A program made the position numbers and the translations under genes. Under the pieces are notes generated by a model, which saw only the letters and a list, made by a program, of their open reading frames with translations, made no database searches and was not told the DNA's origin. A stretch of DNA of 64,000 nt from Candidatus Marinacidobacterales bacterium. GTDB lineage: Bacteria; Acidobacteriota; Vicinamibacteria; Marinacidobacterales; SMYC01. This document shows, piece by piece, positions 476-51,372 of the stretch. Positions within the stretch are counted from its first letter, which is position 1, and the number at the start of each line of letters is the position of its first letter. The DNA lies in NCBI GenBank assembly GCA_965262245.1, contig OZ253507.1, positions 2,268,690 through 2,332,689 of the forward strand, read 5' to 3'.

Positions 476-581
476 TGGACGGAAAAGGGCGCGGGCCAGA
501 GTCTCGGGCGTCGCGCCTACTAGATCGCGCTTCGGGTCTAACATCGGCTTCATCGTTTCCTCCTAATCGAATTGGATGCCT

Positions 582-680
582 GCGTTTTGAAGTTCTGCGT
601 TTTGAAGTTCTGCGTTTTGAAGTTCTGCGTTTTGAAGTTCTGCGTTTTGAAGTTCTGCGTTTTGAAGTTCTGCGTTTTGG
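582..680. repeat. 15-bp direct tandem repeat GCGTTTTGAAGTTCT x6.5
   Basis: Six perfect copies plus one partial copy are seen directly in the sequence, immediately 3' of the IS1595 transposase fragment. The overlapping ORFs 475..753 and 572..796 (LRFEVLRFEV...) are translation artefacts of the repeat. Confidence 0.95.
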
Positions 681-683
681 GCT

Positions 684-953
684 TCACGACTTTTTCCAAG
701 ACGCCCGTGCCTTCTTTAACTCACGATGCTTTGCGAGTGGTGCAATTTTTTGAAAAAAGACAAACCAGTCTTTCGGCCAGGCTTCAAACTGGCTAGTTGT
801 CATTCTTCCTGCATCGATCAAGGGTGTTGGGATTTTCAATTGATCAAGTTCGTACTGTAAATCTAGGATTAACGCAAACCTTTCTGGCTGGAGGGGATTG
901 CTATTTATTAGTTTTGCCGCTTCGTCTCGACACCTTACAATCTCTGGATGCAA
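684..953 (-). CDS. Hypothetical small protein in a low-GC (~42%) segment; TTG start, no recognisable domain
   Basis: 89-aa ORF in an AT-rich island (about 780..1130) that contrasts with the ~62% GC surroundings. It has a non-ATG start and could be non-coding. Confidence 0.25.
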   Translation of the reverse strand: MHPEIVRCRDEAAKLINSNPLQPERFALILDLQYELDQLKIPTPLIDAGRMTTSQFEAWPKDWFVFFQKIAPLAKHRELKKARASWKKS

Positions 954-10175: not shown

Positions 10176-10871
10176 ATGCAGGCGCCACGGCATCCCGATC
10201 TGATTTCCACTCCCGTGGTCCGCGTCCAGGATCTGGCCTTCGGCTATGGCGAAGGGGATTTCGAGTTGCGGATTGGAGAGCTCGAAGTCGGACGGGCATC
10301 CTCGGCGGCGTTCATCGGTCCGAGCGGATCGGGTAAGACGACGCTTTTACATCTCATCGCGGGGATCACGCTGCCGCAGTCGGGTACGATCGAGACGAAC
10401 GGAGTCGATCTAACCGGTCTTTCGGAGAACGCGCGCCGCGGCTTTCGCATCAAGAATATCGGCCTCGTCTTTCAGGAGTTCGAGCTTTTGGAATATTTGA
10501 CGGTGCTCGACAACGTGCTCTTGCCCTATCGCATCAATCCGGCGCTCGAGCTGACGGAGGCGGTTCGCGCGAGGGCGGCTGCCGTGACGGTGGATGTGGG
10601 AATAGGAGACAAGCTCTCGCGCTATCCGAGACAACTGTCGCAGGGCGAGCGGCAACGAGTGGCGGTGTGCCGCGCGGTCGTGACCGAGCCGGCCGTGCTG
10701 ATGGCGGACGAGCCGACCGGCAATCTCGACCCGCACAACAAAGGACGCGTGCTCGACATCCTGTTCGATTATGCCGAGGCGAGCGGCGCGACGCTTCTCA
10801 CGGTGACGCATGATCACGATCTGCTCGACCGTTTCGAGCGCGTCGTCGACTTCAAAGAGCTCTTGTCGTGA
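10176..10871 (+). CDS. ABC transporter ATP-binding protein (LolD/MacB-type)
   Basis: Walker A GPSGSGKTTL, signature LSQGERQRVAVCRAV, Walker B VLMADEPTGNLD. The stop overlaps the permease start (GTGA). Confidence 0.85.
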   Translation: MQAPRHPDLISTPVVRVQDLAFGYGEGDFELRIGELEVGRASSAAFIGPSGSGKTTLLHLIAGITLPQSGTIETNGVDLTGLSENARRGFRIKNIGLVFQEFELLEYLTVLDNVLLPYRINPALELTEAVRARAAAVTVDVGIGDKLSRYPRQLSQGERQRVAVCRAVVTEPAVLMADEPTGNLDPHNKGRVLDILFDYAEASGATLLTVTHDHDLLDRFERVVDFKELLS

Positions 10872-11553
10872 AGCAGACGCTCTATCTGGCTTGGCGCTAT
10901 CTGGCGTTTCACCCTCTGAAGACGATCATCCTGCTCACGTCGATCACGTTGATCCTTTATCTCCCTGTAGGCTTGCGGGTCCTCGTGAACCAAAGCTCGG
11001 AACAGCTGACGCGCCGCGCCGACGCGACGCCGCTCGTCGTCGGCTCGAAAGGGAGCCCACTCGAGCTCGTGCTCAACACCCTCTACTTCCGCTCAGACTT
11101 CCCCGAGCCGATGCGCTATAGCGAGGCGCAGGAAGTCCAGGATTCCGGGCTCGCGTCGATCGTGCCGATGTATGTTCGCTACCACTCTCGAGGCCATCCG
11201 ATCGTGGGGACGAGCGTTGAATATTTCGAACGTCGCGAGCTCGGGGTGCAGGTGGGGCGCCTGTTTACGTTTGTCGGCGAGTGCGTTCTCGGGGCGCGCG
11301 TCGCCGAAGCGTTGGGGGCGCATGTGGGAGACGCGGTCATCTCTTCGCCTGAGAACCTCTTCGACCTAGCGGGCGAATATCCCCTGAAGATGAGGATCGT
11401 GGGCATTTTGGCGCTCGAGGACAGCCCGGATGACGACGCGATCTTCGTGGACATCAAGACGACGTGGATCATTGAAGGGATCGGCCACGGTCACCAGGAT
11501 GTGACGCGCCGTGAGGCGGCGGGTGCCGTGTTGTCGCGCGAAGGCAATCGAGT
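10868..11553 (+). pseudogene. FtsX/MacB-type ABC permease, 3'-truncated by an IS fragment
   Basis: N-terminal TM helix and MacB-like periplasmic domain are present (MKQTLYLAWRYLAFHPLKTIILL..., VGSKGSPLELVLNTLYF). The C-terminal FtsX TM domain is missing; the ORF runs into the IS-end fragment at 11554. Confidence 0.65.
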
Positions 11554-11730
11554 GCACAATGTCGATGTGCATGGTTACTATATACTCTATTAAAGATTAT
11601 ATTACAAGAGTTATATGCGTTATTACATGGCTACAAAATGCAGGCGGAGTTCGTATCTCTATCGTTGTAACTCCTTGCAACTAAGGGTGCTTCACCGAAG
11701 AAAGAGAGGTTTTACCGAGGGGAACTTCAG
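11554..11730. mobile_element. Solo left-end fragment of the IS1634-like element
   Basis: 177 bp ~98% identical (2 differences) to 50475..50650, in the same orientation. It contains the IS terminus, the 5' UTR and the first 6 codons of the transposase (MHIDIV). No transposase body follows. Confidence 0.85.
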
Positions 11731-11745
11731 GCTAGAAGTTTCTTT

Positions 11746-12550
11746 TTGACAACTGATGGGAGGTTTCTCATGACCAGGTCGATGTTGGTGATCGGGATGG
11801 CGTTGGCGCTCGTGTCCCCCGCGCTCGCGCAGGACGGTCCGGCGCAGTTTCAGCAAATGGTTCACTTCACCGTCAAGCCCGGGATGGAGGACCAGTTCGA
11901 AGCGATCGTCAAGCAGTACGTCGAGGCCGCGGACAAGACAGGCGCGCCGAATCGCTGGAACGTGTTTCATCAGGGCCCCGGCGGCTCTCCGAACCATTAC
12001 CACCTCGTGACGAGCTTCAACGAGTTTTCGGAGCGAGATGCGTGGACAGGCCCTGGCGAGATGTTCATCGAGGCGCACGGTGAAGAGGAGTTCGCCGCCG
12101 CCAATCGCCGGTGGGCCGCAGCCGTTACGAACGTCCACATCACGCTCTCCACCCACCAGCCGGATCTGAGCACGAAGAAAGACCGCCGGAGGCATCCGGA
12201 ACCACTACCTCGCCACGAACACCGAGATCAGACCGGACAAACTCCAGGAGTACCGCTGGGCGATCGGGAAAATCCGCGAAGCTCAGGACAAGGCGACGGG
12301 GTCCCCCGCGGTGGTCGGGCGGCGAATCTCAGAGGGCAACCGCTGGGTGTTCCGGTCCATCACGGGGTTCGACAACGGCGCGGACCGCGACGGCTGGACT
12401 CCGTTCGGCGAGTTCATGTCCATCTACACGGACGAAGAGCGCGATCAGATCATGGACACGCTTCGCAGCACCATCGTCAGCAGCCGGTGGTACGAAGTAA
12501 CCCGCCGACCCGACCTCAGCCACACCGGTCCGGCCGGCTCGACGAACTAG
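11746..12550 (+). pseudogene. Secreted protein with two tandem homologous domains; frameshift between the domains
   Basis: RBS GGAGG before ATG 11770 and a signal peptide (MTRSMLVIGMALALVSPALA). Domain 1 is in the frame of ORF 11746..12576 (...NRWNVF..NEFSERDAWTGPGEMFIEAHGEEEF). Domain 2 (NRWVFRSITGFDNGADRDGWTPFGEFMSIYTDEERDQ) is in the frame of ORF 12311..12550. The switch is at AAGAAAGACC (about 12175..12185). The stop TAG 12548..12550 lies in the CTAG target duplication of the adjacent IS. Confidence 0.5.
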
Positions 12551-14241
12551 CTAGTTCCTGTCCAGAAACACCATAACTTGTGGTGTGCGAGAGACCTATC
12601 GAAGATGTGGGTATTATACGTTTTCGGAAGGGGCTTCGTGGGGTTGAGAGCGAATGAAAATCTTGGACGAAACGAGAGGCGAATTGTTAGCAATCCATGG
12701 CTATAAGGGGCGGAAGAGTAATAGTTGTTATCGTAATAGGTGTCTTGCCATCATCAGTAGGTTGCAGGTGATGATGGAACTCCATACGTACGATTTAAAA
12801 GAAGGCAATGAGCGCCATGTGCATCGGTCGAGGCCAAAGACTCGTTTCAAGAACGAAATGACGCCTTCGATTCCGCAGCGAAATCGCCGCAGGCGTTGAT
12901 AGACCCAGGAACTCTTGACCATATCGGTCACCGCGAAATGAGCCTTGGTAAAGGCAACATCTTCAACTCCCTTGCCTTTGATGGCTTCCAAGTTTGCCTT
13001 TGAAGAAAACGCGCCATCGTAGGCAACCTGGCGCGGGGCCCGTTCGTAGAGTTCGACTTGACGGTCGATCATGGTTTCCGCGAGAGTTGAATCGGACGGA
13101 TTTCCATCTAAGATCACGCAATCCAAAATCATCGAGGACGAGCCACCAGTCATACACACCTTGTGGCCGTAGAGAGTCTCGCGCCGGTCTTTGCGAATAA
13201 TGTCGGTGTGTTCTTCGAAGATAGAAACGACCTTCTCCTCCGCAGGCACACGCTCTTCGTCGATCACTCGGCGTTGGGTTTGGTTGATGACTTTCTTGGT
13301 GAGGACGAGAAAGTGCTCAAAATCCGCGGCGATCCTCTCCGCGCTCGCTCGCTTCACCGGCTCGGTCAAGCCCGACTCTTCCAACTGTGCTGCAACGCGT
13401 TGAGCGGAGCGATAGGTTTCTTCCGTCACCTTCAGTAGATCTCGATAGACGCGACGCCTTTGTTGCTTATCCTTCGCGTTCAGAACTCCCAGTCGACGTC
13501 TCTTCGCTCGACGCGTTCGATTGCCGAAGACCACTACTGTACCCAGCAGTTCGCGAGCTCGGCACATCACGCGAGTGAGAACCCGAACACAGTCATAAAG
13601 AAGCTCGGAGTCTGTAGGCGGATGAATGTTTGATTCCACTACCGTGCAGTCCACTCGTACTTTTCTTCCCTTTTCGATCCCAGCATCCTCGGCAACGCTC
13701 ACCAGCTCTCGGTTGATCTGCTCCAGCGTTTCGAACTTCACGGCTTTGATGTTTGCTGCTAGGGTCGACTTCGACGGGGTCGGCTCTATGATGCCGAGCT
13801 GGCAAAACGTCCGATAGCTTCGAGAGTCTGCCAAGTGAAACGCCAGCTCCCGATAGGTGAACTGATTCAGCTGCTTCACCAACAACGCCCGGAGAACCTG
13901 CTCCGCGCTCATTCCCCCACGACCAACATCGCTCCCTGCCGGTGGGGTGACCGACCTTAGGTCTTGCAGTACCAGCTCATTGAGCTTAGGATGGGCATCG
14001 AGTAGCGACGAGATCGTTTCGAGCTCGCGTGCGTGCTCCAGCTCCAGCCAGGGCTCACGTAGATTTGGCTGTGGGTTGATCGTTTTTCGCATTTAGGGCT
14101 GGTCTCCTTTGGAGTTAAGTCATTTAGAATCGGATGTTTTCAACGACACGATCCTAATCGACACCCCCTCAGAAGACTAGCCCTAAATTTGCGATTTCTC
14201 CTTTTTTCTCAATCCCTTACAGGCTTCAGGACGGGTACTAG
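12551..14241. mobile_element. IS5/IS1182-family-like insertion sequence (1,691 bp) with imperfect terminal IRs and a 4-bp CTAG target-site duplication
   Basis: Left IR CTAGTTCCTGTCCAGAAAC... at 12551; right IR (reverse complement) CTAGTACCCGTCCTGAAGC... ending at 14241. CTAG is present at 12547..12550 and again at 14242..14245. AT-rich ends flank a single DDE transposase ORF. Confidence 0.7.
12728..14092 (-). CDS. DDE transposase (IS5/IS1182-like)
   Basis: 454-aa ORF filling the IS. Typical N-terminal HTH region and a DDE-type C-terminal domain (YDGAFSS...). The family assignment is inferred from overall similarity. Confidence 0.75.
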   Translation of the reverse strand: MRKTINPQPNLREPWLELEHARELETISSLLDAHPKLNELVLQDLRSVTPPAGSDVGRGGMSAEQVLRALLVKQLNQFTYRELAFHLADSRSYRTFCQLGIIEPTPSKSTLAANIKAVKFETLEQINRELVSVAEDAGIEKGRKVRVDCTVVESNIHPPTDSELLYDCVRVLTRVMCRARELLGTVVVFGNRTRRAKRRRLGVLNAKDKQQRRRVYRDLLKVTEETYRSAQRVAAQLEESGLTEPVKRASAERIAADFEHFLVLTKKVINQTQRRVIDEERVPAEEKVVSIFEEHTDIIRKDRRETLYGHKVCMTGGSSSMILDCVILDGNPSDSTLAETMIDRQVELYERAPRQVAYDGAFSSKANLEAIKGKGVEDVAFTKAHFAVTDMVKSSWVYQRLRRFRCGIEGVISFLKRVFGLDRCTWRSLPSFKSYVWSSIITCNLLMMARHLLR

Positions 14242-14405
14242 CTAGATCACCTCGGCATGCCGCTTCCCGGTTCGGGCATCGGCTGTCCGTTCTTGTTGAC
14301 GTAGACGCTCTCCCACGGGCCGGTCGCGCGCACTTGGAGCGCGACCGGCTCCGTGGTCCACTCGTATGGCTGACAGCGTCGGGGTTCACGGACAACGTGC
14401 CGGCG

Positions 14406-14990
14406 TCAGCTCGATGCTCTCGCTCGGCCTGACGGCGTTGTCGTAGCCGCTCTGTTGATTGGACAGGTAGCCGTTTCTATCCGGGAAGGCCAACCGTGGG
14501 AGCCAGATTGAGCAAGATTTTGGTATCGAGGTAGGCATTTAGAATTTCCCTTGCGGGCGAGAGCGAACGCCGTATCGCGCTTGAGCGCCCACGAGCTCGA
14601 GCCATCGAAGACTTCACGAAACAGATCGTCGTTCGCGTCTTCGCCGCGGCGGCGCGCGAGAAGCTCGGCGCGCTGTGCGCGTGCACGCTCGACACGTACC
14701 GAATCCGGCCAACGGTCGAGCAGAATGGCATAGGCCTCGAGCGCTTCTTCGACGCGTTCGAGCTCCGCGAGGCAATAGCCGACGTAATACTGAGCGTCGT
14801 CGGCTTCCTCGCTCGCGCGGAAATCGCTCACGACGCGTCGGAACTGTGCGAGCGCCTCTTCGAAGCGTTCGTCGATCAAGTGCTCGCGTCCTTCGAGGTA
14901 GAGCTCCCGAGCCGATTCCTGGGCGTCGCTCGAGCAATAGCTGCCGAGCGTCAAGATGAGCAAGAACGAAAAGACCACGTGCTGCTTCAT
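14406..14990 (-). CDS. Secreted TPR-like protein (YbgF/BamD-like fold); C-terminus probably disrupted
   Basis: Signal peptide MKQHVVFSFLLILTLGSYCSS, then TPR-like pairs (ELYLEGREHLIDERFEEALAQFRRVV..., AQYYVGYCLAELERVEEALEAYAILLDRWPDS). The last ~60 aa of the ORF do not look protein-like. Confidence 0.4.
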   Translation of the reverse strand: MKQHVVFSFLLILTLGSYCSSDAQESARELYLEGREHLIDERFEEALAQFRRVVSDFRASEEADDAQYYVGYCLAELERVEEALEAYAILLDRWPDSVRVERARAQRAELLARRRGEDANDDLFREVFDGSSSWALKRDTAFALARKGNSKCLPRYQNLAQSGSHGWPSRIETATCPINRAATTTPSGRARASS

Positions 14991-14991
14991 T

Positions 14992-15864
14992 TCAGAATAC
15001 CTTTCTCGTTCCGCGCTCTTCGCGGCCGATCCAGCCAGATGCTTCGAGGGCTAGAGATACTTTTCCGTTCAAATCAATGGCGGCGAGCTGAGCCGGGAGC
15101 CGGCTCCCTTCGAGGCTCGCTTGAAACACGCCGACGCCCGTCCCGCTCGTCGAGCTCTCGACGGCAGCGAGCTCTTCGAGAAAGAGCTCGGCGCGCCGAA
15201 TGGTTCGAAGGAGGTCCCGGTCTTTGTCAGCATCGAGTGCGGTCTCGAGGAGTCTTCCGTCTCTCAAGAGCTCGCTTGCGCGCTCGCGGGTGAGGAACAG
15301 ATCTTCGGTGCTCACGACATCGACGGAAAGCTCCATCACGCCGACGAGAAGATCTTGGAGACCGTCGACGTAGCGCACACCGACGTCGGACAGAAGCTCG
15401 GCGCGCTCGAGCGCCAAGAGTGCTTCAGGTGAGATGTCGAGATTTTCGACCGCGGCGATCTCCGTGAGTCCGGCGCTCGGCGGTGTGTCGAGCCGGCCGA
15501 TGCCGATCACGAGAACCGCGGCCATCGCCACGAGCTCGTAAGCGCGGTGGGCTCGCGCCGGACTTTCGGCCGGGGCCGGGGGCTCGAGCCGCCGTTTCAG
15601 AGCGATCCACGCTTTTTCGGAGCGCTCGCCGTCGGCATTTTCAGCGGGCTCGGACCACCGATCTCCGTAGGGAAGCAGTGCCTCGGAAACGTTGCTGAGA
15701 GCGGCAAAGGCGACTTGCGCGTCGTCGAGCGCCTCGCGACAGCCGCGGCAGTGTTCGACATGTTCTCGAAGTGCGGCCTCAGCCGCTCGGTCGAGCTCGC
15801 CGAAAAGTAAGGATTCGAGCTGCGCTTCTCGATCTGTACAGGCTGTACAGGCTGCTGGATTCAT
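14992..15864 (-). CDS. Anti-sigma factor (zinc-finger, HxxxCxxC type)
   Basis: N-terminal LREHVEHCRGCREALDD is a ZAS-like zinc-binding motif. The gene lies immediately downstream of an ECF sigma gene; the C-terminal region is predicted helical. Confidence 0.5.
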   Translation of the reverse strand: MNPAACTACTDREAQLESLLFGELDRAAEAALREHVEHCRGCREALDDAQVAFAALSNVSEALLPYGDRWSEPAENADGERSEKAWIALKRRLEPPAPAESPARAHRAYELVAMAAVLVIGIGRLDTPPSAGLTEIAAVENLDISPEALLALERAELLSDVGVRYVDGLQDLLVGVMELSVDVVSTEDLFLTRERASELLRDGRLLETALDADKDRDLLRTIRRAELFLEELAAVESSTSGTGVGVFQASLEGSRLPAQLAAIDLNGKVSLALEASGWIGREERGTRKVF

Positions 15865-16426
15865 CGTCTGACTCCCTTTCGGGCTTTCAAGAAAACTCCG
15901 AGCTTTCGAATACCGCGAAAGACTTGCGTGCGTGCAGTGACCTCGTTGCAGCCGAGGGTTTCGGCAATGACGCGCATCGGAGCTCGTCGAAAAACCGCAT
16001 CGTCACGGCCGCGCGCTGGCCTTCGGGCAGACGCTCGAGGGCTGCTTTCACTGCTGCGGCGCTCTCCGCGCGCAGCAAGCTCGTTTCCGCTTCGGCAGGC
16101 GCGACGTCGATCGGCCTCTGCTCTTCGTCGATGCGGGCTCGCCGGCTCACTTTGCGCCTGTCCTCGATTGCGCGGTTGACGGCAATGCGGCAGAGCCAAG
16201 GATAGAAGCGCTCGGGCTCCCTCAGCCGAGGTAGCTCCTTCAGCGCGGCTACGTAAGCGTCCTGTACCATGTCTTCTGCCAAAATCCTGTCTCTGACGAC
16301 TCCAAAAACGACGTGCACCACGCGATGGTAATAGCGGCGGTGAAGCTCGCCAAAGCTATCCAAATCTCCGGAAAGCGTTCTTTCGACGAGCTTTACGTCT
16401 GCGTGTGCTTCAGCGAGCTCGGGCAT
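15861..16426 (-). pseudogene. ECF sigma factor with a -1 frameshift before region 4
   Basis: Region 2 (DMVQDAYVAALKELPRLREPERFYPWLCRIAVNRAIE) and LPEGQRAAVTMRFFDEL are in the frame of ORF 15887..16426. The region-4 HTH (MRVIAETLGCNEVTARTQVFRGIRKL) is in the frame of ORF 15861..16199. The shift is near 15975..15982. Confidence 0.6.
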
Positions 16427-16492
16427 GTTCGTAGATAGGGCGGTCCTGGGGCCGCTAACGTTGCACGAAAAAAGCGTGCTACCGAAAAAGAG

Positions 16493-17263
16493 TCAACTAT
16501 TCAAGCGCGCCCAGAGCGCTTCACAGGCCTCGACCGCGCGGAGCGGAAGCCGCACGTCGACTTCTCCCGAAAGCAATGTGACGCCCGGGTTGATTTCCAC
16601 CGTGGGCTTGCCATTGTGCTTCGCTTCGAGGACAGGGCGGGCGATATATGGAAAGGCGCTCGTCGTCCCGATCGAAAACACAACGTCGAAGCCCTTCTCG
16701 AGCTCCGTGTGCATGAGCTCGACTTTATGAAAGGGAAGAAGCTCTCCGAAGAGCACGACGTCGGGACGCAGATGCGTGCTGCATTCCGGGCAGGAGGGAA
16801 GCGGCGAGAGTACACTGTAGTCGTCCACCGTGGTCTGATAATCGCACGCCGTGCAGGAAAGGCTATGGATGTCGCCGTGGATATCAATGACGTTGCGAGA
16901 GCCGGCTTTCCGATGGAAGCCGTCGACGTTTTGCGTCAGGACCCAAGCGCGTTCGTAGCGATGCTCTGCCTCGGCGAGCATCTCGTGGGCTCGATTGAAG
17001 CTGGCGCCGCGACACGCGGCTTCGATCTGATGGATGTGCTTCCACGTGAGCGCGGGCTTCGTCTCCATCATCGTGCCCGAGAGCGCTTCTTCGATGGTGA
17101 TGCCTTCGGGCGTATCGACGTCTTCGTAGAGACCGCCAATGCCGCGATAAGTAGGGAGACCGGAATCGGCCGAGATCCCGGCCCCGGTGATGAAGAGAAC
17201 GCTCTTAGCGTCTCTCAGATAAGAAACGACTCTATCGAGCTCGTGTTCGAGGCTCGCCACCAT
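16493..17263 (-). CDS. cobB: NAD-dependent protein deacylase, Sir2 family (CobB-like)
   Basis: [15 protein letters not shown] Rossmann motif, QNVDGFH, and a Zn ribbon (CxxC...CxxC: SCTACDY...CPECS), across 256 aa. Confidence 0.85.
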
Positions 17264-46159: not shown

Positions 46160-47173
46160 GGCGCGACACGAAGCTCTCAGCACTCTTGCTGCTCTTGGCG
46201 TCGATTCACGGAGTCGCGATCCTCGCAGGGTTCTTCTCGCCCTATTCGTATCGCGAGCAGAATCGCGACGTGCCGCTTGCGGCGCCGACCAAGCTGCGAT
46301 GGGTCGATGGGAGCGGCGGGTGGCATCTGCGCCCTTTGGTCGAGAGCCCCCTTGCGGGCGGCGCATTGGTGCCGCTTCGCTTCTTCGTTCGGGGTAGCTC
46401 TTATTCGGTTTTGGGTCTGTTCGGATCGGACTTACATCTCTACGGCGTCGATGAGCCTCATCGCGTCTTTCTTCTTGGTACCGACGCTCTCGGGCGCGAT
46501 TATTTTTCGCGGCTCGTCGTCGGCGCACAGGTGTCGCTGACAGCAGGCCTCGTCGCTGCGGCGCTCGCTCTCACCACGGCCTTGAGCCTCGGCGCTCTCG
46601 CCGGCTATTTCGGCGGCTTCATCGACTCTGCGATCATGAGACTCGTGGACGTGTTCTTGAGCTTGCCTTGGATTTACATGCTTCTCGCCGCGCGCGCTTT
46701 TCTCCCCCTCGACATGGCGCCGGGGACGGCGTTTTTCGTGATCGTCGTGCTTCTCGGCCTTTTGGGATGGCCGGCGCCGACGCGCATCGTGCGCGGCATC
46801 GTGATGAGCGCGCGCGCGCGACTACGTCGAAGCCTCCCGGGGCGCCGGCGCCGGGCACCTCCACTTGCTCTAGCGCCACATCCTCCCACAGGCTCAAAGC
46901 GCGATAGCGATCCAAGCCACCCTGCTCGTGTCCGCCTACATGCTTGCCGAAGTCACCCTTTCCTACGTGGGCCTCGGCGTCGGCGAGCCCCTGCCGAGTT
47001 GGGGAAATATGCTTGCCGACCTGCCGCGGGGGAGCCTTCTCGGCGCCGAACCCTGGACCTTCGCACCGGCCTTCTTGCTTGTCGGCGTGACTTGGCTCTA
47101 TCATTCGGTCCTATCGTCTCTCGGGGGCCATCATTCGCGCGGGAGTTGGGGGCGCGACGCGAGGTTGACTTGA
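46156..47173 (+). pseudogene. ABC transporter permease (DppC/OppC-like) with a frameshift in a (GC)6 run and an in-frame TAG
   Basis: The N-terminal part is in the frame of ORF 45118.. up to ...IVRGIVMSARAR. It continues in the next frame from GCGCGCGCGCGCG (46808..46820) as RDYVEASRGAGAGHLHLL*RHILPQAQ. The TAG at 46871..46873 replaces a sense codon. The C-terminus SAYMLAEVTLSYVGLGVGEPLPSWGNMLAD is ORF 46928..47173. Confidence 0.75.
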
Positions 47174-47205: not shown

Positions 47206-48627
47206 ATGTACGTGCTAGCGCATTTCATCCTTTTTTCTTGCTTTGCCGTTGTCGGCCACAGCGAGCAGCGCGGTGGCCGGCTCGTCGTGAGCGAAACGTC
47301 CGAGCCGAAACATTTCAACCCGGTTACGGCGGTCGATTGGGCGACGAAGACGGTGGTGGGTCTGCTGATGGCGGACCTCTTGCACATCGACCGTGAGGAC
47401 CAGAAGGTCTATCCGAACCTCGCCTCAGATTGGGACGTCTCCGAGGATGGGCGCAGCTATACGCTGACCCTTCGCGAGGGCGTTCGTTTCTCGGATGGTC
47501 ACCCCGTCGATGTGGACGACGTGCTGTTCTCCTTGCGGGTCAATCTCGACGAGGCGATCAACTCCCCGCAGCGGGGACTTTTTATCGTTGGTGGGGAGCC
47601 GATCCGGGCGCGCAAGCTCGGTGCGCGTCGTATCGCCTTCGAGCTCGCCGGGCCCTATGCCGCGGGCGAAAGGCTGTTCGACTCGTTCTACGTCTTGCCC
47701 CGCCATCGACTCGAAGAGTCCTATGAGAGCGGCGAGCTCGCGAGCGCGTGGGGCCTTCTCTCGGATCCGGAGCGCATCGTCGGCCTGGGTCCGTTCCGAC
47801 TCGAGCAAGTCGTGCCGGGCGAGCGGATCGTCCTTGAGCGCAACCCTTATTACTGGAAAGTCGACGAGGCCGGCGAGGCTCTGCCTCATCTCGATGAAGT
47901 GGTCATTCTCATGACGCCTTCGGAAGACGCGGAATTGTTGCGGTTCAAGGCCGGCGAGATTCACATGATCCAAGATCTAGGCTTCCGGGATTTCGACGCG
48001 CTCGATGCTGAATCGAGTTTCGCGATGCGCGATCTCGGCCCCGGGCTCGAGCACAACTTTCTGTTCTTCAATCTCAACGATCGCGCAGGCGGGGAAGACG
48101 AAGATCTGGACACCCGTCAGAGCTGGTTCCGGAACGACGCGTTTCGGCGCGCTGTGTCGGACGCCATCGATCGCCAGTCCATGGTGCGGCTCGTCTATGG
48201 AGGGCGCGCAGCGCCGCTCGCCTCACACGTCACGCCGGGAAACAAACTTTGGATCAACCGGAGTCTCGTCGTCGCGCCATATTCGGAGGCGCTAGCGAAG
48301 GAGAGTTTTCGAGACGCGGGCTTTCGATGGAACGAAGCGGAGCGCCTCGTAGACGCTGAGGGGCGCCTCGTGGAATTCTCGATCCTCACGAGTGCCGGGA
48401 ACCGTCCACGTTCCATGATGGCGAGCTTGATCCAGGAGGATTTGCAGCGGGTCGGGATCGAGGTCACCATCGCGACGCTCGAGTTCAGGGCCTATGTCGA
48501 TCGAATCTTTCAGGGACGTGATTTCGAGACGGCGCTTCTTGGTTTGGGAGGCTCGGACGCGGATCCGAATCCCGAAATGAGCTTCCTGGGTCGCAGTGGT
48601 GGAGCCAAGGCCTTTTCGGCGACATGA
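47206..48627 (+). pseudogene. ABC transporter substrate-binding protein, family 5 (Dpp/Opp-type), 3'-truncated at the IS insertion
   Basis: Signal peptide MYVLAHFILFSCFAVVG; SBP_bac_5 motifs through GLGGSDADPNPEMSF. The expected last ~70-80 aa are missing, and the ORF ends where the IS1634-like element begins. Confidence 0.7.
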
Positions 48628-50493
48628 GTTTCGTACGATAGAGGCAAGGTGGCGGAGCAGAGTTCTGAAACTGTAAGCGGGGCTTCCGTCCTCCAGCTTT
48701 TTGGAGCGCACTTTTCGAAGAGCGGCCTGCGAACGCTTGGCCGGTGCCACAGGGTCGCGGCTTGCCTTGGCATTCTGATCTTCGTCAGAAAAAAGCACTG
48801 GTCGCCACGCCTCAAGCATGTGCCATTCAACGTAGTAGGCCAGCATACACAAGAAGATGTGTGCCCGGACTCGGTTTTCGAGACGGTGGCGAATAGGCCG
48901 CACCTTGAGGTCCATGGTCTTGAATGAACGAAACGCACGCTCGACTTGGGTGAGCAACTTATAGCTGCGGACGGTATCCTCAGTGTTCATCTGCTGTGCA
49001 CTGAGACTGGTGCGAATCACATAGATGCCGTCCAGTGCGGCTTCTGCCTCGACCTTCTTTTTGTCGATTTCGAAGGAGAAGGCATCGTCACGAATATCTA
49101 GTTTGAAGTGTTTTCCGACTTTGTACTTGTTGAGAACTTTGCCTACCCGCACCCCTATAGTGGCTTTTCCATGGAGCTGACCGTGCTCGATTCGCTGACG
49201 CAGTTGCTCCATTCGCCTGGCGATAGTCTTCATATGCTGTTTCCACCGGGCGAGTTGCTTGTCAGCTAACACACTATTGTCTTTAGCAATGTGCGCAGCA
49301 TCGACAGCCATCGTCGTCTCGTCGACCTTGAAGTCGAAGCCGTCGTCACGGGTCTCGAACTTGTAGTACTTGCCCACCTTGTATTCAGCAAGGAGTTTTT
49401 GCACTCGGGCATTGATGTCTTCCCTACCGTGCAAGCGGCCGCGTTCGACCATCCGGCAAATCCTTTTCAGTTCTTTGCTGGTCGCTTCGAGCAATTCCTG
49501 ACGCTTTAGGGCTCGGCGCTTCGCCAGTTCGTGGTTGCGACAGGCCACGAGACGCTCGTTGGGAAAATCCGAGTGTGTCAACTCAAACAAGTTGCGCTCG
49601 TCAAACAGCCCCATCTGCAGCGCCCCTTCGTTGAGGAGTTTGCGAATCGGCGCGGGTCGCAGGGCTGTAATCCAATCAATGCCCTCGAAGTCCTGTAAAG
49701 CGTCAACCTGTCTTTGGGTGATCATTCCGCGGTCGCCGACCATCACAAACCGCTTGATGCCGAACTGCTCTTGCACCTTTACTACTTGAGGTAGAAACGT
49801 TTTCGGATCGCCGGTGTTGCCCTCGAACACCGATACCGAGACAGGGACGCCCCTTTGGTTGGTCAAAAGGCCGTAGTTGATCTGGAGTTTGTTTTTCTTA
49901 CCGTCGCGGTTGTATCCGAGGCGGGCCAGGGGGCACTTTTCTCCCTCGAAGTAGCTTGAGCTCAAATCGTACAAACCAAGTCCACCGTTTTCGAGGTGAC
50001 GCGCCGCCAGTTTTTTCTCAATAACCCTTTGGCGCTCGAACACCCAGTCCATAGCGGCATATAGGTCGTCCTCGTCGGCATCACTCACACCGAGGATTTC
50101 GGGCAACGTTGTGCTGTGCCACCACTGGCTCGTTGCCAACCTCGACTGGGCTTCGAGTATGCGGGCGGCCACCATAGCCACCACCAGGTCACGTTGGCGT
50201 GAGCGTCGGGATGCGACGAGTTTGTCGAACTCAAGGCGTTTCATCGCGCTCAACACGGCCTCGACGCCACCGTGGAGTCGCGACCCGTCGGGCACAACCT
50301 CGAAGACGTCCTCGACCGCGACGAGTTTTTCTCCCTTGAGAACCCGTCGAATGGAGTCGACCTGCTCGCTTGGCAGTTTGGACAGGTTGGCAATTGTGCG
50401 CTTGCGCGGTTTCTTGCTTTTGGCGTCGCGAAAGGACTCACGGAGCAAAACGGCGGGTTTGGAGTTGCGGTTGGGCACAATGTCGATGTGCAT
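48292..50493 (-). CDS. Large DDE transposase (IS1634/IS4-like), 733-aa ORF; C-terminal ~100 aa probably read-through into flanking DNA
   Basis: Begins MHIDIVPNRNS; long transposase typical of the IS1634 group. Family-level call from length and architecture only. Confidence 0.6.
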   Translation of the reverse strand: MHIDIVPNRNSKPAVLLRESFRDAKSKKPRKRTIANLSKLPSEQVDSIRRVLKGEKLVAVEDVFEVVPDGSRLHGGVEAVLSAMKRLEFDKLVASRRSRQRDLVVAMVAARILEAQSRLATSQWWHSTTLPEILGVSDADEDDLYAAMDWVFERQRVIEKKLAARHLENGGLGLYDLSSSYFEGEKCPLARLGYNRDGKKNKLQINYGLLTNQRGVPVSVSVFEGNTGDPKTFLPQVVKVQEQFGIKRFVMVGDRGMITQRQVDALQDFEGIDWITALRPAPIRKLLNEGALQMGLFDERNLFELTHSDFPNERLVACRNHELAKRRALKRQELLEATSKELKRICRMVERGRLHGREDINARVQKLLAEYKVGKYYKFETRDDGFDFKVDETTMAVDAAHIAKDNSVLADKQLARWKQHMKTIARRMEQLRQRIEHGQLHGKATIGVRVGKVLNKYKVGKHFKLDIRDDAFSFEIDKKKVEAEAALDGIYVIRTSLSAQQMNTEDTVRSYKLLTQVERAFRSFKTMDLKVRPIRHRLENRVRAHIFLCMLAYYVEWHMLEAWRPVLFSDEDQNAKASRDPVAPAKRSQAALRKVRSKKLEDGSPAYSFRTLLRHLASIVRNSCRRKGLGSTTATQEAHFGIRIRVRASQTKKRRLEITSLKDSIDIGPELERRDGDLDPDPLQILLDQARHHGTWTVPGTREDREFHEAPLSVYEALRFVPSKARVSKTLLR

Positions 50494-50650
50494 GGTTACT
50501 ATATACTCTATTAAAGATTATATTACAAGAGCTATATGCGTTATTACATGGCTCAAAATGCAGGCGGAGTTCGTATCTCTATCGTTGTAACTCCTTGCAA
50601 CTAAGGGTGCTTCACCGAAGAAAGAGAGGTTTTACCGAGGGGAACTTCAG
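48292..50650 (-). mobile_element. IS1634-like (IS4 superfamily) insertion sequence; left end at 50650 well defined, right end about 48600..48630
   Basis: The left end is defined by identity to the solo copy at 11554..11730. The right end is inferred from where SBP homology stops and from a subterminal motif similarity (48630..48650 vs 50575..50600). The transposase ORF reads through the presumed right end to 48292. Confidence 0.65.
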
Positions 50651-50739
50651 TTTATCAGTTTGGTCAGCCCTCACATCCTCGTCGGGGCGAAAGCGACGCT
50701 GGGGAATTTTCGTCCCGGGATCCTGCCGCCTTATACGCT

Positions 50740-51372
50740 TTGGAACGCCGAAGAGCTCTTCTGGACGAGATGAGCGCGCGCGAGGCTCGGAATCTGAATC
50801 CGAGCGATGCATGGACCGACCTGCGTCTCGTTCGCGCCTGCCTCGATGGGAGCGAGGATGCGTGGAACGCGATTCTCGACAAATACAAGCGGCTCATCTA
50901 CTCGATCCCGATCAAACACGGCTTCTCGCCCGAGGACGCGTCCGACATTTTCCAATCCGTATGTGTGGAGCTGTTGAAGGAGCTCCCGCGGCTGCGCGAA
51001 CCACGCGCTCTCGCCGGCTGGCTGATCAAAGTCACGGCCCACAAATGTTTTCATTGGCAGCGCACGGAGTCTCGCTACGTAAAGACGGAGAACCCGCCAG
51101 CGCCCGTTTTCGAAGGGCCGGATCTCGACGAGCTTCTCGACGCCGTCGAGCGCGAGCAAATGCTTCGCGACGCTATGGGCTCGCTCACCGCCCGATGCAA
51201 GAAACTCGTCTCGATGTTGTTCTTCGACTTTCCGCTCACACCTTATGACGCGGTGGCCAAGAAGTTGGGGCTTGCCCGCGGCTCCATCGGGTTCATCCGC
51301 CGCCGCTGTCTCGATCGTCTGAAGAGGAATCTCGAGGAGCGAGGCTACAAGGGACGCCTGCCACGTGACTAG
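50740..51372 (+). CDS. ECF sigma factor
   Basis: Region 2 (SDIFQSVCVELLKELPRLREPRALAGWLIKVTAHKC) and region 4 (LTPYDAVAKKLGLARGSIGFIRRRCLDRL). Probable real start at a downstream ATG (about 50770). Confidence 0.8.
   Translation: MERRRALLDEMSAREARNLNPSDAWTDLRLVRACLDGSEDAWNAILDKYKRLIYSIPIKHGFSPEDASDIFQSVCVELLKELPRLREPRALAGWLIKVTAHKCFHWQRTESRYVKTENPPAPVFEGPDLDELLDAVEREQMLRDAMGSLTARCKKLVSMLFFDFPLTPYDAVAKKLGLARGSIGFIRRRCLDRLKRNLEERGYKGRLPRD

Follow-up and report, generated by a model that had tools for sequence, protein, structure and literature searches.

How did the end of an insertion sequence (IS) come to stand alone beside a truncated ABC permease gene, and why does nearly the same sequence recur next to a second broken ABC transporter gene? 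These questions were raised by a 64-kb stretch of DNA from a Candidatus Marinacidobacterales bacterium (referred to as the window, i.e., the whole stretch that was analyzed). The short sequence beside the permease gene is referred to as copy A, and the longer IS that carries its repeat as copy B. The original prediction had explained the ends of both ABC operons by IS-adjacent deletions.

Results

A Single Pair of Long Direct Repeats in the Window

The sequence at window positions 11554-11730 (177 bp) recurs at 50475-50650 (176 bp) in the same orientation. With 175 of 177 aligned columns identical, the match agreed with the 98% originally given for these two intervals. The differences are one substitution and one 1-base indel, and the alignment breaks off sharply at both edges. 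In a repeat search of the whole window, this pair was the sole long repeat, with a 15-bp tandem array and one weak 33-nt pair at chance level as the other repeats. The 177-bp repeat is real and far beyond chance. Its G+C content is 40% vs. 60% for the window. A longer non-IS repeat family enclosing the 177 bp was looked for, and none was found. The repeat search also revealed no inverted-repeat partner of 11554-11730 in the 64-kb window. The two intervals are direct repeats spaced 38.9 kb, and homologous recombination between the two remnants could remove the intervening 38.9 kb.

The tandem array at window 565-699 is perfect and comprises roughly 7-9 units of 15 bp (CTGCGTTTTGAAGTT). The alignment with the related contig L001 is offset at this array, implying a different number of units there.

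The Repeat Belongs to a 2214-bp Element of the IS1634 Family

The full-length element was defined from 12 complete copies on related metagenome contigs (L012, L013 and L031-L040), which were gathered from contigs encoding transposase P0001 and its sister sequence P0362. All 12 are 2214 bp long, save one of 2213 bp, and their ends read CTGAAGTTCC.../...GGAACTTCAG. The copies start with CTGAAGTTCCCCTCGG, which is the left inverted repeat, and finish with ...GGGGACAGGAACTTCAG; the right inverted repeat, given as its reverse complement, is CTGAAGTTCCTGTCCCCTGG. The two inverted repeats agree perfectly over their first 10 bp, in which position 1 is C and positions 7-8 are TT. The transposase ORF spans nt 159-2135 in consensus numbering and encodes a product of 658 aa. 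A perfect 6-bp target duplication was found for nine of the 12 copies, and one more showed a single mismatch. The duplicated targets, e.g., CTTAGG, TCTAGC, GCTAGC, TCTAGA, TTTAAG and CTTAAA, have a palindromic nYTARn core in common (CTAG, TTAA, TTAG). The flanks clearly do not match in two of the 12 copies (L036 and L039) and are off at one base in L035; these mismatched flanks suggest recombination between IS copies.

The 733-aa transposase ORF of the window matched NCBIfam NF033559 with 316.5 bits (cutoff 100) and also matched Pfam DDE_Tnp_1. Among the matches listed, close homologs were mostly 653-664 aa long, the 99%-identical 658-aa form being P0001. The prediction of a solo IS1634-like end was thus borne out, the family by NF033559 and the terminus by the 12 intact copies with their target-site duplications, and the 177-bp sequence is almost certainly a remnant of this 2214-bp element.

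The element is apparently an unnamed member of the known IS1634 family. This IS4-related 'emerging family' (De Palmenaer et al. 2008, PMC2266710) is characterized by termini of the consensus C-----YT, duplications of 5-6 bp and transposases of unusual length, with an element length quoted in 2008 as 1500-2000 bp (PMC2266710). The element studied here shares with the family a single large DDE transposase ORF matching NF033559, termini that fit C-----YT (CTGAAGTT), short target duplications (6 bp, compared with 5-6 bp) and a long transposase that contains an internally repeated spacer region. In contrast to the family, it is slightly longer, with 2214 bp as compared to 1500-2000 bp, and its targets have the palindromic nYTARn core rather than being simply AT-rich. 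Moreover, it lacks long variable duplications like those reported for IS1634 and IS1549 themselves.

P0362 was recorded on 34 contigs, and one 978-kb contig carried four copies, indicating that the element is abundant and recently active. An exact-pattern scan for the left end of the IS gave no match in the GTDB species-representative genomes or the JGI metagenome contigs.

Several N-terminal transposase fragments in the 90% cluster end in foreign tails. Three truncated ORFs of the P0001 cluster (P0363, P0364 and P0374) are broken at two positions and have one foreign tail in common, GCRS.IYN..NNLQ.HYRWYVT.C. This common tail probably represents the translated terminus of a different mobile element that enters this IS repeatedly.

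Copy A Is a Solo Left End Abutting a Truncated ABC Permease Gene

Copy A (11554..11730, minus strand) matches nt 1-177 of the 12 complete 2214-bp copies. It consists of the left inverted repeat (11715-11730; CCGAGGGGAACTTCAG on the plus strand), an AT-rich leader and, from the transposase ORF, only the initial 19 nt (11554-11572, minus strand; ATGCACATCGACATTGTGC), exactly as the sequence had been read before. At nt 84-85, copies A and B alone have CC, while TT is present in 12 of 12 complete copies. This common variant indicates that both copies belong to one sublineage. With one terminus, no partner in the window and flanks from two chromosomal regions, copy A is a solo IS end. Further solo ends or short copies were not found among the loci L001-L040 (about 0.6 Mb of related contigs). 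A MITE or another two-ended non-autonomous derivative was considered and rejected, since copy A has the left inverted repeat only and other short copies are absent from L001-L040.

To the left of copy A lies an intact ABC transporter ATPase gene (10176..10871, plus strand), the partner of the truncated MacB_PCD-type permease ORF (10868..11593, plus strand; Pfam MacB_PCD). The native codons 1-228 of the permease stop at 11553 (junction J1), as compared to 392-393 aa in its relatives, and its last 13 codons and the stop codon (11554-11593) are supplied by the IS fragment, giving a permease remnant of 241 aa. Alignment with the relatives is lost after ...REGNRV, and comparison with the sister contigs L004-L006 places the breakpoint at 11553|11554. 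Permease homologs that are 92-93% identical carry names of Acidobacteria-like MAGs; for the ATPase, the best relatives among the matches listed in a genome scan were only 66-68% identical. The abutting permease had been noted as lacking its FtsX domain; its whole C-terminal membrane part is gone, and 228 of 393 codons are left. Pfam detected MacB_PCD in the permease, while FtsX was undetected even in the intact 393-aa relatives (E<=0.01). The window permease lacks the hydrophobic residues 300-393 of these relatives.

The transposase start within copy A opens a 68-aa chimeric ORF (window 11366-11572, minus strand) that runs antisense through the permease remnant. This ORF is probably meaningless, and gene finders would call it. 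A consensus scan revealed no sigma-70-like promoter or terminator in 11300-11900, and no Rfam family matched in 11300-12000 (E<=1). These empty scans give no reason to assume that the fragment contains an RNA element or an obvious promoter directed outward. Copy A has no demonstrated function and merely gives a stop codon to a permease pseudogene.

The Segment to the Right of Copy A Is Contiguous in an IS-Free Sister Strain

The IS terminus abuts a chromosomal segment (11731..12554, plus strand) at junction J2 (11730|11731). Window positions 11732-12554 and 14237-14546 are contiguous in the related contig L002, where they directly follow the second PrkA gene and no IS is present at this point. 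The segment with the secreted-protein gene thus comes after the ZnuA-PrkA cluster in L002; the same ATPase/permease pair is located about 8 kb upstream and is co-oriented with it. The empty site for copy A in L002, TTCTAGAAG, is a typical target of this IS. The window flank beside the left inverted repeat reads TCTAGC and lies about 39 bp upstream of a gene for a small secreted protein; the base directly beside the IS terminus is G at window 11731 vs. T in the L002 empty site.

The gene for the small secreted two-domain protein (ORF 11770-12576, plus strand) is frameshifted by an extra A at 12178 as compared to L002. The true C-terminal half is read in ORF 12311-12550, and the same frameshifted product of 268 aa was called in two other assemblies. 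The small secreted protein had no Pfam or NCBIfam match.

The segment is interrupted by an ISNCY-family insertion sequence (12555..14236, 1682 bp, minus strand; NF033593, 438 bits) with a 454-aa transposase (12728-14092, minus strand). This element is missing from L002 and is flanked by an 8-9-bp duplication, (A)CTAGCTAG, at 12546-12554 and 14237-14245. Its presence in the segment abutting copy A is a clean, simple insertion. An extra inverted ISNCY copy was observed in L001 at about 20513, at a position matching window ~20681 and missing from the window. Since the ISNCY element is polymorphic between L001, L002 and the window, it is currently mobile in the population.

The continuation of the L002-type segment (14237..14546, plus strand) ends at junction J4. 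This junction (14543-14546) is IS-free, has a 4-bp microhomology (AATT) and joins the segment to the interior of a TPR/HEAT-repeat gene. The gene remnant (14406..14990, minus strand) is native only in its N-terminal part, from 14990 down to about 14547; the intact gene encodes 659 aa in L006.

Sister Strains Are Broken Differently in the Same Interval

The intact ABC ATPase gene served as the anchor for finding sister strains. Its exact look-up yielded six sister contigs that were 98.6-99.9% identical over the shared DNA. Alignment of both IS junctions with related contigs, as had been proposed along with the original prediction, recovered IS-free sites in L002 for the copy A terminus and in L020 for copy B. 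L002 corresponds to ERZ26167216 ctg494865, L020 to ERZ25074053 ctg379595 and L023 to ERZ28763718 ctg86703. The sequence on the left side of copy A agrees with L004-L006 as far as 11553. The window flanks (to 11553 and from 14543) stand only 1927 bp apart in L004-L006.

The gene order on the far side of the permease was seen in relatives. Species with 90-93% identical permeases have the order ATPase-permease (393 aa)-ZnuA, followed by PrkA-gene remnants. Sister strains reached via the SIR2 gene have ZnuA-PrkA-DUF444-SpoVR-PrkA beside a sigma/SIR2 block. These gene orders fit a collinear ancestor. L023 keeps the permease to about residue 372, which indicates that the membrane domain existed recently in the population.

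In sister strains, the permease was cut independently at other points where no IS1634 fragment is present. In L002, an IS66 element lies at permease codon ~92; in L003, the permease breaks near codon 105; and in L004-L006, it is fused at about codon 244 to a sulfatase fragment. In L021-type contigs the deletion reaches the sigma gene, and in L023 a segment is apparently inverted. The comparison of architectures drew on the loci L002-L006, L014-L016 and L021-L026. The interval from the ATPase/permease pair to SIR2 (window 10176-17263) was found in at least six architectures on contigs that are about 99% identical over shared DNA. As each sister strain is broken differently in this interval, it represents a rearrangement hotspot.

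In four sister contigs, another gene stands after the second PrkA gene, and the L002 arrangement may itself be derived. The tail of L002 (20238-20696) had no match among the first 40 loci (L001-L040). No strain was found to represent the predicted intermediate, in which a complete IS would precede the secreted-protein gene, and the sequence linking this gene to the sulfatase/TPR block was not recovered.

Copy B Interrupts a Dpp-Type Binding-Protein Gene

Copy B (48589..50650, minus strand) is a right-end-truncated IS1634-family element that comprises IS nt 1-2063 of 2214, with its left inverted repeat at 50635-50650 (minus strand). The element at 48.6-50.65 kb had been taken for an intact copy; however, it has lost its last 151 bp, in which 23 codons and the right inverted repeat are located. 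Its transposase starts at 50493 and has 635 native codons, after which the frame runs into antisense sequence of a substrate-binding protein (SBP) gene. The resulting chimeric ORF of 733 aa (48292-50493, minus strand) comprises these 635 transposase codons and 98 codons of antisense SBP. The 733-aa protein matched P0001 over residues 1-635 only, with the remaining 98 residues being foreign. Copy B carries two private changes.

The interrupted gene encodes a family-5 (Dpp/Opp/Nik-type) SBP. Its 5' part (47206..48588, plus strand) is broken at 48588|48589. It had been described as 3'-truncated, but its last 40 codons and stop codon persist beyond the IS at 50651..50773 (plus strand; FISLVSPHILVGAKATLGNFRPGILPPYTLWNAEELFWTR, then stop). 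In L020, where no IS is present, the intact gene has the same 40 codons in the same frame. The search for homologs of the SBP fragment yielded nothing closer than 53% identity, and the intact arrangement in L020 was instead found via a 208-aa protein encoded nearby. The sequence of L020 agrees with the window as far as 48588 and again from 50651, with 165 bp between, and its translation gives a continuous family-5 binding protein across the copy-B site. Since the reading frame of L020 is continuous across the site, the IS was inserted inside the SBP gene, at ...FDYRP|FISLV.... The gene thus lost only 55 codons (165 bp) at copy B.

Immediately after the complete SBP gene, L020 has the same sigma-factor gene that comes next in the window, so no Dpp ATPase genes were there to be deleted. 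Therefore, the ATPase genes are indeed absent as originally noted, but their absence is unrelated to the IS, since the IS-free L020 lacks them as well. Compared with L020, the window has also lost 2 bp from a (GC)n run at 46807, which frameshifts a DppC-like permease gene (dppC); with this frameshift, the whole Dpp cluster appears to be decaying in the window strain.

Discussion

The deletion endpoints inside the IS lie at nt 177/178 in copy A and at nt 2063/2064 in copy B, and neither copy retains the right inverted repeat. As read from the sequences, J1 and the copy-B junction are blunt, with no shared bases and no microhomology. The internal breakpoints and blunt junctions point to illegitimate, homology-independent deletion and not to adjacent deletion made by transposase. 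With a probability of roughly 0.8, copy A was left by a deletion that truncated the IS and was not made by transposase. The enzymology of the deletion cannot be read from sequence. As both remnants lack the right end, neither can transpose.

A specific history with two deletions accounts slightly better than evenly for the present arrangement; we infer its order of events and its collinear ancestor, while the insertions, breakpoints and empty sites it builds on are observed. In a first step, an IS copy would have transposed into each site by its usual route, at copy A about 39 bp ahead of the gene for the small secreted protein. In a second step, a later illegitimate deletion at each site would have extended from the IS interior through the right inverted repeat into the flanking chromosome. 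At copy B, the IS would thereby have lost 151 bp and the SBP gene its 165 bp (55 codons), together with one copy of the target duplication. At copy A, it would have run from IS nt 178 to permease codon 228, removing about 2.04 kb of the IS and the intervening DNA. Judged against L002 and related species, the host DNA lost at copy A may amount to roughly 8 kb or more, including the membrane domain of the permease, ZnuA and the PrkA/DUF444/SpoVR cluster. Another deletion, independent of any IS (J4, AATT), would then have removed the DNA between the secreted-protein gene and the TPR gene, and the ISNCY element would have entered separately. Since the DNA on the sulfatase/TPR side was not recovered, this collinear history with two deletions has the status of a model rather than of a reconstruction.

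The structure at copy A might alternatively have arisen from a patch or replacement. Here, a 1.3-kb piece with the IS tip and the secreted-protein gene would have been brought into an already deleted locus of the L004-L006 type, in which the permease remnant was joined beforehand to the sulfatase fragment and the TPR gene, replacing 1927 bp by template switching in break repair or by illegitimate recombination with incoming DNA. The short distance of 1927 bp between the window flanks in L004-L006 fits this proposal, as does the 4-bp microhomology at J4, which is typical of template switching or end joining. It is nevertheless unlikely, since it needs one complex event with two illegitimate ends and would make it a coincidence that the same gene lies co-oriented downstream of the same ATPase/permease pair in L002; in addition, the window holds no second (donor) copy of the segment. 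An assembly chimera, in which the 177-bp repeat caused a mis-join in metagenome assembly, is extremely improbable. Such repeats can mislead assemblers and the population is highly polymorphic, but a mis-join would give a hybrid of two loci and not an IS tip between unique DNA. Moreover, the junction sequences recur in independent assemblies of two other samples (ERZ25069191 and ERZ25068832), whose contigs contain identical 50-mers spanning J1, J3, J4 and both copy-B junctions, which makes an assembly artefact unlikely.

Two further proposals assign a role to the transposase. In transposase-mediated adjacent deletion, as for IS1, IS10 and IS903, the IS stays complete and the deletion starts exactly at its end. 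If the IS-adjacent deletions of the original prediction are taken in this sense, intramolecular transposition would have removed the distal parts of both ABC operons, in line with an element that is clearly active in the population and with two truncated genes that both adjoin IS1634-family sequence. The loss of host DNA beside the IS is common to these cases and the present one; here, however, the IS is cut internally (nt 177/178 in copy A, nt 2063/2064 in copy B) and has no right inverted repeat. Copy B lost only 165 bp of host DNA and the remainder of the SBP gene survives past the IS, and the ATPase genes are missing from the IS-free strain too. Adjacent deletion in its classical, transposase-made sense is therefore a poor fit and very improbable. 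An abortive transposition, with cleavage at the right inverted repeat only, two-way resection and homology-free rejoining, would lead copies to lose preferentially the right end and adjacent host DNA. Both window remnants kept the left end and lost the right one, and both junctions are blunt, as such a process would produce; with two cases only, however, the chance of the same end being lost is 0.5. The IS-free J4 demonstrates a deletion in this region without any IS end, and the three truncated ORFs with one tail point to the insertion of another element and not to a right-end deletion. The truncated transposase ORFs of the 90% cluster neither support nor test right-end-specific decay. Abortive transposition is thus improbable, and a directed decay route, by which right-end cleavage, resection and end joining would make gene loss systematic and transposase-initiated instead of random, is slightly less probable still.

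Illegitimate deletion after ordinary IS insertion, the preferred explanation, makes copy A a commonplace trace of genome decay in a bacterium rich in insertion sequences, from a population in which IS-associated decay is heavy. Like partial IS copies in other IS-rich decaying genomes, it is one-ended, immobile and located beside pseudogenes, and, as for IS remnants elsewhere, its strain population shows many IS-linked rearrangements of the same region. It differs from usual IS remnants in nothing essential and is unusual only in that its history is readable, because sister strains keep the IS-free site and alternative deletions. Nothing here is surprising to a specialist.

For annotation, the permease gene, the Dpp binding-protein gene, dppC and the small secreted-protein gene should all be read as pseudogenes, and the 733-aa "transposase" as the chimeric read-through of a crippled element. 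When a gene appears 3'-truncated at an IS junction, the far side of the IS should be inspected before a large deletion is assumed. The contigs covering the rearrangement hotspot could serve as a small natural data set on DNA loss in IS-rich genomes.
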